Source: Escherichia coli
GTDB lineage: Bacteria > Pseudomonadota > Gammaproteobacteria > Enterobacterales > Enterobacteriaceae
Reading direction: 5' to 3' (one strand)
Length of the DNA: 64,000 bases
Assembly (NCBI RefSeq): GCF_046105845.1
Contig: NZ_CP151004.1
This document shows, one piece after another, positions 32,790-32,950 of this stretch. Under the pieces are notes generated by a model. It was not told the origin of the DNA. It saw only the letters and a program-made list of their open reading frames with translations, and did no database searches. Made by a program: the position numbers and the translations under genes. Each line of letters begins with the position of its first letter. Within the stretch, counting starts at the first letter, position 1.

Positions 32790-32950
32790 TGAATGAGTCC
32801 CCAGGAGCTTACATTAAGTAAGTGACTGGGGTGAGTGACAAATCTGTCCGGAACAGATTTGAACACCGTGTAACGGTGGCCCGTAAGGGCGAGGCTCATG
32901 GATGAGCCGAGTAACTAGCAGCCAACGAAGAGGCAGTTTGAAGGATGAAG
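32790..32950. repeat. ERIC (IRU) element, long variant, immediately 5' of the acpH start codon
   Basis: TGAATGAGTCCCCAGGAGCTTACATTAAGTAAGTGACTGGGGTGAGTGACAAATC ... ; same architecture as the copy at 17589-17755. Confidence 0.7.

Follow-up and report, generated by a model that had tools for sequence, protein, structure and literature searches.

What separates queA from acpH in some strains of Escherichia coli, and what does it mean for acpH that this DNA runs right up to its start codon? The question arises from a 64,000-nucleotide stretch of an E. coli genome (contig NZ_CP151004.1; hereafter the window), in which acpH, the gene for an acyl carrier protein (ACP) phosphodiesterase, is preceded by a palindromic repeat. 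A sequence-only reading of the window had placed an ERIC copy here, at 32790-32950, and had paired it with a second copy next to yajO. ERICs, also called IRUs, have been known since 1990. The segment 32752-32956, on the forward strand, is one copy of this family of miniature transposable elements with inverted repeats (MITEs), in its "long" form and of the TATACAC...GAAGGATGAAGTGTATA subfamily. Three features were absent from the sequence-only reading: a 78-nt module nested within the repeat, the presence/absence polymorphism of the element and its module, and an element end that falls on the acpH start codon. The best explanation of the locus, and one that we consider likely, is that a long ERIC allele abuts acpH; it would be transcribed into a structured leader RNA that might condition acpH.

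How well does the segment fit the ERIC family? The complete element is 205 nt long and comprises a 127-nt ERIC plus the 78-nt nested module, as supported by an alignment of three alleles and by RNA folding. It opens with the left terminal inverted repeat TATACAC (32752-32758), which starts with TA and is complementary to the right terminal repeat GTGTATA (32950-32956). The right arm of the ERIC (32917-32956) includes this second repeat and an AAGGA motif resembling a Shine-Dalgarno (SD) sequence (32941-32945), and in an RNA fold the two arms of the element pair into a single long stem. The central inverted repeat, CCCCAGGAGCTTACAT T AAGTAAGTGACTGGGGTGA, is the region of the primers ERIC1R and ERIC2 and lies at 32799-32834, where the acpH copy reads CCCCAGGAGCTTACATTAAGTAAGTGACTGGGGTGA. 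With the primer sequences taken from PMC3696847, 32793-32814 matches the complement of ERIC1R at 20 of 22 positions and 32816-32837 matches ERIC2 at 21 of 22; the yajO copy matches each at 21 of 22. Removal of the internal module leaves exactly 127 nt in both window copies. When the 19 published K-12 ERICs (Cozzuto et al. 2008, supplement) are used as a reference, the acpH copy is closest to eco:19 (83.6% identity) and eco:9 (82.8%), and its termini, with TA at both ends, are of the TATACAC type found in the second subfamily (eco:9, eco:19). It is also 87% identical to an ERIC at a different locus in Pseudocitrobacter.

Primer consensus, length without the module, and alignment to the K-12 elements thus bear out the earlier claim that the segment is an ERIC copy. 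The conserved core inverted repeat on which that claim leaned is there too: the half-core AAGTAAGTGACTGGGGTGA occurs exactly twice in the 64 kb, at 17611 and 32816, where 0.01 occurrences would be expected by chance. A search of the window for the whole core CCCCAGGAGCTTACAT(T)AAGTAAGTGACTGGGGTGA at up to three mismatches returned no second match, because a 1-nt indel hides the partner. As to location, an element is indeed present at 32790-32950, but that span starts too late, dropping 38 nt of the left arm, and stops too early, dropping the right terminal repeat.

Elements of this kind are already known, and the acpH copy is an ordinary member of its family. With other ERICs it shares the 127-nt imperfect palindrome, the central inverted repeat, the 7-bp TA-ended terminal repeats, the intergenic position, and the multicopy nature (a query containing the partner copy between dxs and yajO found 6 places in the median E. 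coli genome). Nothing essential differs; the acpH copy belongs to the TATACAC...GAAGGATGAAGTGTATA and not to the TATACTC...GAAGTATGACGAGTATA subfamily, and it is absent from the K-12 locus. Correia/NEMIS, RUP, and other bacterial MITEs are, like ERICs, small, TA-flanked, palindromic pieces of transcribed intergenic DNA with effects at the RNA level, but they are unrelated to ERICs in sequence, and for Correia elements RNase III, not RNase E, has been implicated. We know of no parent element that mobilizes ERICs in trans. As one more copy of a family long known, the acpH element has little importance. What is added here are its correct boundaries and identity, its subfamily assignment, its composite structure, and a three-state polymorphism with orthologues in Citrobacter, and only the nested module has some potential for novelty.

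Rfam offers little by way of a name. No family reached its gathering threshold anywhere in the 64-kb window, and in E-value mode the acpH region gave a single match, between the ERIC core and the Vibrio family V_AS5, at the chance level of E = 0.26. This alignment of the core (32786-32833; L005:339-447) with V_AS5 (Vibrio antisense RNA AS5) scores 18-20 bits, the gathering score being 96, and suggests that the V_AS5 family overlaps the Vibrio version of ERIC.

Is the element a regular part of the E. coli chromosome? The ERIC at acpH is an allele, not a fixed feature. The locus was searched in 5,426 E. coli genomes, 5,419 of which gave a match. The site is empty in 4,598 of the 5,419 (~85%, including K-12), each a single contiguous match at ~92% identity, and an ERIC is present in the remaining 821 (~15%). 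The long form accounts for 139 genomes (2.6%) and the short form for ~12.6%. Empty queA-acpH spacers measure 88-93 bp (~85% of complete E. coli, E. fergusonii, and Salmonella); K-12, O157, and E. fergusonii read ...ATAATCGATGAATTT at the acpH start, with spacers of 88-92 bp. The 294-bp spacer of the window is 100% identical to that of E. coli strain 104. The element occupies a TA whose A opens the acpH ATG, and empty E. coli alleles read ATC-GA-TGAAT, not ATC-TA-TGAAT. An empty allele on ERIC-type flanks, which could show TA duplication or precise excision, was found in none of the 5,419 genomes.

What, then, distinguishes the long allele from the short one? The nested module (32837-32916, forward strand) is absent from the short allele and scores 86.3 bits (E ~1e-20) with covariance model R1. 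It is made up of four hairpins, H1 (32839-32861, loop CCGGA), H2 (32864-32878), H3 (32879-32890), and H4 (32893-32908, loop UGGA), and ends in the tail GAGTAACT. In both window copies it appears as 78-79 extra nt in the right arm, directly 3' of the ERIC central hairpin. At acpH, the short and long alleles are identical in sequence except for the 78-nt module. The dxs-yajO copy is long in the window, in strain GF43, and in E. albertii and short in BL21 and K-12 (eco:4); there, the two forms are 99.4% identical apart from a 79-nt module. Short alleles read as canonical ERICs (GA-AG-GCAGCC and GA-AT-GCAGCC), and in the long alleles the two bases AG or AT are replaced by 79-80 nt, CAAATC...TAACT(A/C). 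The same internal junction, GGGGTGA..GA followed by CAAATC..., holds the module at five E. coli loci and in 81 of the 123 pattern matches listed across genera.

How one form gave rise to the other is less plain. A clean insertion or a clean deletion was considered and set aside: the junctions fit neither, and there is no evident target duplication. Gene conversion between ERIC paralogues is the link that remains, and it is a guess. Two identities for the insert were likewise rejected. Published BoxC copies read CCCCTCACCCTAACCCTCTCCCC..GGGGCGAGGGGAC and are unrelated to the module. A tRNA- or tmRNA-like origin had been suggested by a GATTTGAAC string; ARAGORN reported neither in the window, with no tRNA gene in the 64 kb, and the supposed T-arm pairing fails.

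Long ERICs as such are not new. Elements with an internal insertion of about 70 bp were reportedly described by Cromie, Collins, and Leach in 1997, by Sharp in the same year, and by Wilson and Sharp in 2006, and their good folding is said to have been reported in 1997. In the acpH and yajO copies, too, 78-79 nt are inserted at one fixed internal position, and the structure remains well folded. What possibly goes beyond those papers is that the inserted stretch is a discrete unit of four hairpins, that alleles otherwise the same differ in having it, and that it is also seen at a second, left-arm site, between rrnB T1 and T2, and in Gammaproteobacteria other than enterics.

Is the structure of the module maintained? 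In a MAFFT alignment of 40 ERIC-embedded copies from at least 10 genera, 95.4% of the cells are paired, and 9 of the 25 pairs have changed on both sides. Structures slid by 1-3 columns along this alignment leave 30-43% paired, and slid controls overall range from 22 to 43%. When 128 distinct copies, taken from every context, are aligned to the model, double changes appear at 21 of 25 pairs, a figure to be read with the fact that this alignment was fitted to the covariance model and that hairpin 1 is partly fixed by the search pattern. The RNA of the whole 205-nt element has a minimum free energy of -85.1 kcal/mol (z = -8.0; opposite strand, z = -7.5). In the predicted fold, the long terminal stem closes a multiloop, inside which are the central hairpin of the ERIC and the module's four hairpins. 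The module is strongly structured, conserved between genera beyond neutral expectation, common to the rrnB T1-T2 spacer, and below the threshold of Rfam.

The second copy of the window helps to place the first. It is a long ERIC between dxs and yajO (17548-17752, forward strand) with ends TAGACTC...GAGTATG, and its own four-hairpin module (17632-17712, forward strand) scores 98.5 bits with the covariance model, which finds these two ERIC-embedded modules in the window and no others. The copy is the orthologue of K-12 eco:4 and is 96.9% identical to it, eco:4 itself being without the module. Aligned with each other, as the sequence-only reading had proposed as a check, the two window copies prove homologous over their whole length: their identity is 72.7% on the earlier coordinates and 74.9% over the full elements, far above shuffled controls (mean 51%, maximum below 58%). 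The similarity of about 85% estimated by eye was too high. A "mean column identity" of 83% was set aside as a pairwise value, since that statistic counts a two-sequence mismatch as 50%. Nor is the yajO copy a close partner, homologous though it is. The arms of the two are only 74% alike because they represent different ERIC subfamilies, which by sequence are TATACTC...GAAGTATGACGAGTATA for yajO and TATACAC...GAAGGATGAAGTGTATA for acpH.

How would such an element come to matter to acpH? The acpH coding sequence (32956-33537, forward strand; 193 amino acids [aa], an exact match to a protein named ACP phosphodiesterase) begins inside the repeat, in that its canonical ATG (32956-32958) takes its A from the end of the right terminal repeat, GTGTATA. 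The AAGGA motif, 10 nt before this ATG, is supplied by the ERIC right arm, and motif and arm are conserved in the orthologous elements of Citrobacter freundii and Citrobacter koseri. Between acpH and all of its native upstream DNA the element interposes 127 bp (short allele) or 205 bp (long allele). On the far side lies the divergent queA (31590-32660, reverse strand), whose start codon is 91 bp from the left end of the ERIC.

In the explanation that we favor, the element would be transcribed with acpH, the leader starting either at a promoter in the conserved 90 bp near queA or within the element itself. The leader RNA would fold into the long terminal stem and the multiloop with its central hairpin and four module hairpins. 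AAGGA and AUG are both paired with the left arm in the predicted fold, and acpH translation might be lowered or conditioned as a result. The stability of acpH mRNA might also be altered, as it is by ERICs in Yersinia, where elements co-transcribed with neighboring genes change transcript stability by way of RNase E and in an orientation-dependent manner (PMC2229807, PMC10969869). We infer the regulatory effect on acpH from the predicted structure and from this published Yersinia work. The empty, short, and long alleles, otherwise near-identical, amount to a natural experiment on what an ERIC, and separately its module, does when it touches a start codon.

Several observations weigh against a structured leader at acpH. 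A scan of 32560-33060 for sigma-70 promoters and intrinsic terminators found none on either strand. Were transcription to start inside the element, no sequestering stem could form. The element cannot be required, since most E. coli are without it. The module stems have a 1.5-1.7-fold excess of G-U over A-C, which gives weak support for structure at the RNA rather than the DNA level. The immediate flanks of the ERIC haplotype (32730-32751 and 32980-32990) are ~8% diverged from those of the empty alleles. Finally, the conservation between E. coli and Citrobacter, described below, could reflect recent interspecies recombination and not purifying selection.

Could the element instead be a selectively neutral relic, left over from an old transposition and without effect on acpH or queA, its conservation being due to recent horizontal exchange of the short tract through homologous recombination? 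Its orthologues bear on this. C. freundii carries a long ERIC at acpH that matches the E. coli one in subtype and in nucleotide position, and C. koseri has an ERIC of that subtype and position in internally rearranged versions; the site is empty in Salmonella (93-bp spacer) and in E. fergusonii. Identity between the E. coli and C. freundii elements is 89.3%, compared with 50.8% at third codon positions of acpH and 68.2% at those of queA. Either purifying selection for structure or a recent movement of the tract between lineages would account for these figures. A relic is in keeping with the polymorphism within E. coli and with the empty sites of E. fergusonii and Salmonella. The upstream flank of the ERIC haplotype resembles the C. 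freundii flank more than the empty E. coli allele, the 8% flank divergence fits introgression, and the haplotype has no empty version. Recombinant flanks are visible as well, strain 104 combining the long ERIC with K-12-like acpH codons 9-12. Yet the substitutions in H2 and H4 that set the E. coli element apart from that of C. freundii compensate for one another, leaving the same predicted four-hairpin fold. Covariation across the family shows a maintained structure, and AAGGA with the right arm is conserved in three species. A neutral relic is therefore possible but, on this evidence, doubtful, and relic status with recent transfer would be compatible with a mild regulatory effect.

Where else does the module occur? 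A scan of 100,044 species genomes with a pattern for hairpin 1 found at least 120 loci. Among the 123 matches listed, 81 lie in an ERIC right arm (Yersinia, Serratia, Citrobacter, Enterobacter, Dickeya, Pectobacterium, Brenneria, and others), 12 in the left arm, where they share a second fixed site, and 30 off the ERIC-flank patterns, some of these in truncated or degenerate ERICs and the rest genuinely outside ERIC. A covariance model built from ERIC-embedded copies only picks up another 28 copies missed by the pattern, and variants with hairpin 1 alone score 28-37 bits with it. Such hairpin 1-only insertions are seen in ERICs of Pectobacterium and Dickeya (L113:8709-8776, L114:782-849, L129:6387-6454). 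Other ERICs hold two modules in direct orientation, one of the left-arm and one of the right-arm type (L096:702-892, L028:6966-7155, L121:1159-1363, and others). Beyond the enterics, the module is found in Pseudoalteromonas, Rheinheimera, Rhodanobacter, Chromatiaceae, and several metagenome-assembled genomes (MAGs), often inside other repeat elements or as inverted pairs. Some of the pairs in non-enteric Gammaproteobacteria stand 25-290 nt apart and are reminiscent of REPIN-like doublets (L071:6644-6823, L058:5119-5380, L089:403-838).

One location outside ERIC deserves separate mention. The rrnB T1-T2 spacer of E. coli and Citrobacter holds one module copy, which the ERIC-only model detects at ~58 bits (E ~1e-13). 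In K-12 W3110 (L130:607-684), it lies 77 nt downstream of the 5S gene and before murB. Of the 5,426 E. coli genomes, 3,982 have an rrnB-type module, each at 1-9 places, and six Citrobacter or Pseudocitrobacter loci carry the rrnB-spacer module (L122, L055, L067, L068, L076, L078). It is the same module as in the long ERICs and is oriented in the direction of transcription, but it is not embedded in an ERIC, and its H2 and H4 sequences differ from those of the ERIC copies. The sequence around it resembles a duplicate of the 5S 3' end (GAGTAGG...AACTGCCAGGCATCAAAT) plus a terminator, with the module breaking up the duplicate. A Pseudoalteromonas copy also lies ~250 nt downstream of a 5S rRNA gene. 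The rrnB T1-T2 cassette is used in many cloning vectors; if the module is functional, its function would also be present, unnoticed, in a very widely used vector part.

The nearest curated relative of the module is the Rfam family RF02902 (AaHKsRNA22), an Aggregatibacter small RNA (sRNA 22) defined by RNA sequencing (Oogai et al. 2017, PMC5909427). The two share the same order of parts and the same joints: GACAAA-stem...UUUGAAC, H2, GGCCC-loop-GGGGC-GAG, H4, GAGUA. They differ in that the RF02902 consensus has no GGA in its loops and that the family is described as a free-standing sRNA and not as part of a MITE. Full-length matches to RF02902 are given by the modules of four E. coli long ERICs (30.9, 28.6, 25.2, and 23.8 bits) and a copy in Yersinia thracica (L098, 30.8 bits), all below the gathering score of 39.8 bits; the acpH module (L001) was not reported at E values up to 10. 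The Y. thracica region (L098:1395-1455, reverse strand, and 1594-1673, forward strand) has a non-ERIC module adjoining a sub-threshold match to TwoAYGGAY (RF01731; 33.8 bits versus 43), is rich in GGA-loop hairpins, and contains no conserved long open reading frame (ORF).

Might the structure matter as DNA instead? The palindrome and hairpins could serve a transposase, a recombinase, or a nucleoid protein, and the module could be a DNA unit mobile on its own, targeting a specific ERIC site. Both strands fold about equally, as their z scores attest. The module occupies two fixed ERIC sites, in the right and the left arm, its presence is polymorphic at two E. coli loci, and it turns up in contexts as unrelated as the rrnB T1-T2 spacer and the repeats of Rhodanobacter, Pseudoalteromonas, Rheinheimera, and MAGs. 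Against mobility, no near-identical donor of the acpH-type module was found in the same genomes, which have it at one place each. The exchange of 2 nt for 79-80 nt without target duplication is not a clean insertion either. Against a role as DNA, the excess of G-U over A-C (one H3 pair has 49 G-U) favors the transcribed strand, and the related family RF02902 was defined from detected RNA. A DNA-level role seems to us unlikely.

Could the module have a function of its own, wherever it is found? One candidate partner is CsrA. On this proposal, the nested module would be a binding site for a CsrA/RsmA dimer, and long ERICs would tie their neighbors to the Csr system or act as decoys. The CsrA consensus obtained by in vitro selection (SELEX) is RUACARGGAUGU, with the GGA in a hairpin loop, and one dimer bridges sites 10-63 nt apart (PMC7652899). 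The H4 loops read CAUGGAUG, CAGGGAUG, or CAGGAUG (CA(N)GGAUG), resembling this consensus. The H1 loops read NNGGA, and the two GGA loops are ~50 nt apart, within the bridging range. GGA is present in both the H1 and the H4 loops of the window copies, and this loop pattern recurs in most enterobacterial copies; in H4, GGA is found in 81 of 103 copies ascertained by pattern and in 12 of 28 found by the model only. One older study found murB, which lies downstream of the rrnB copy, to co-purify with CsrA, but murB has no CLIP-seq peak in the tables of Potts et al. GGA loops are absent, moreover, from many copies (Pectobacterium and the left-arm copies of Serratia) and from the RF02902 consensus, and the H1 GGA was imposed by the search pattern. 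The module stems, at 6-9 bp, are longer than those of most SELEX hairpins, and no Rfam model of the CsrB clan matches the window copies. No link of CsrA and ERIC was found in the open-access literature. The resemblance in sequence makes CsrA a speculative lead with a slim chance of proving correct. Similarly slight are the prospects of the broader idea that the module belongs to a widespread, uncurated family of four-hairpin RNAs in Gammaproteobacteria with its own function, CsrA/RsmA binding being a candidate, whose gain or loss would switch a neighboring gene into or out of a global post-transcriptional circuit.

Might ERIC-bearing strains make a longer AcpH protein? The ORF track was said to run 5' into both elements, and so it does: the mechanical ORFs span 32902-33537 (211 aa, against 193 aa for AcpH) and 17698-18741 (347 aa, against 324 aa for YajO). 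The acpH extension adds 18 codons (32902-32955, forward strand) and the yajO extension 23 codons (17698-17766, forward strand; canonical ATG at 17767). Both begin at the equivalent ATG in module hairpin H4 and follow the same frame of the element. ORFs within ERICs, and their fusion to genes, have been described before (Delihas, PMC2229807), and in both E. coli and C. koseri no stop interrupts the frame between the module ATG and acpH, so that the encoded peptides are homologous. A 1-nt indel in C. freundii, however, brings a stop after 15 codons of this frame, and we therefore regard the 18-codon extension as a by-product of the element sequence, without conservation as coding DNA. The module ATG falls in the loop and stem of H4 with no SD sequence, whereas AAGGA stands 10 nt before the canonical one; the short-ERIC and empty alleles encode the same 193-aa protein; and the matching yajO extension points to a property of the repeat, not of the genes. 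A 211-aa AcpH isoform with an 18-residue ERIC-derived N-terminal peptide is accordingly most improbable.

The sequence-only reading also held that ERICs can create spurious N-terminal extensions in automated annotation, and public databases bear this out; ERIC frames running into start codons have led to real errors there. The NCBI annotation pipeline PGAP calls the canonical starts, giving a 193-aa AcpH and a 324-aa YajO in every allele examined. The exact 211-aa extended E. coli AcpH is nevertheless found on 10 contigs in public collections. The AcpH of C. koseri is named in NCBI/UniRef as a 211-aa protein, on 486 contigs (L133; L134:701-1336), its first 18 residues being encoded by the orthologous ERIC and module; this named form, which might be taken in favor of a longer isoform, is probably a systematic start-site error. 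A 348-aa YajO deposited for E. coli chi7122 (CCJ42900.1) begins MTGVNECSRSTCNLKYDEYGRSGS-MQYN, from a region equivalent to 17605-17766 of the window; its start is a GTG within the central repeat of the ERIC, in an allele of the short form.

An ERIC that ends on a start codon is not peculiar to acpH. In Citrobacter sp. Cu233 (L056:8640-8760), a further long ERIC, from the GAAGGATGAAGT subfamily, has its end directly on another gene's start codon (GAAGGATGAAGTAA-ATGAAGATATTGGTGGTT...), and the right end of ERICs may repeatedly supply an SD-like AAGGA.

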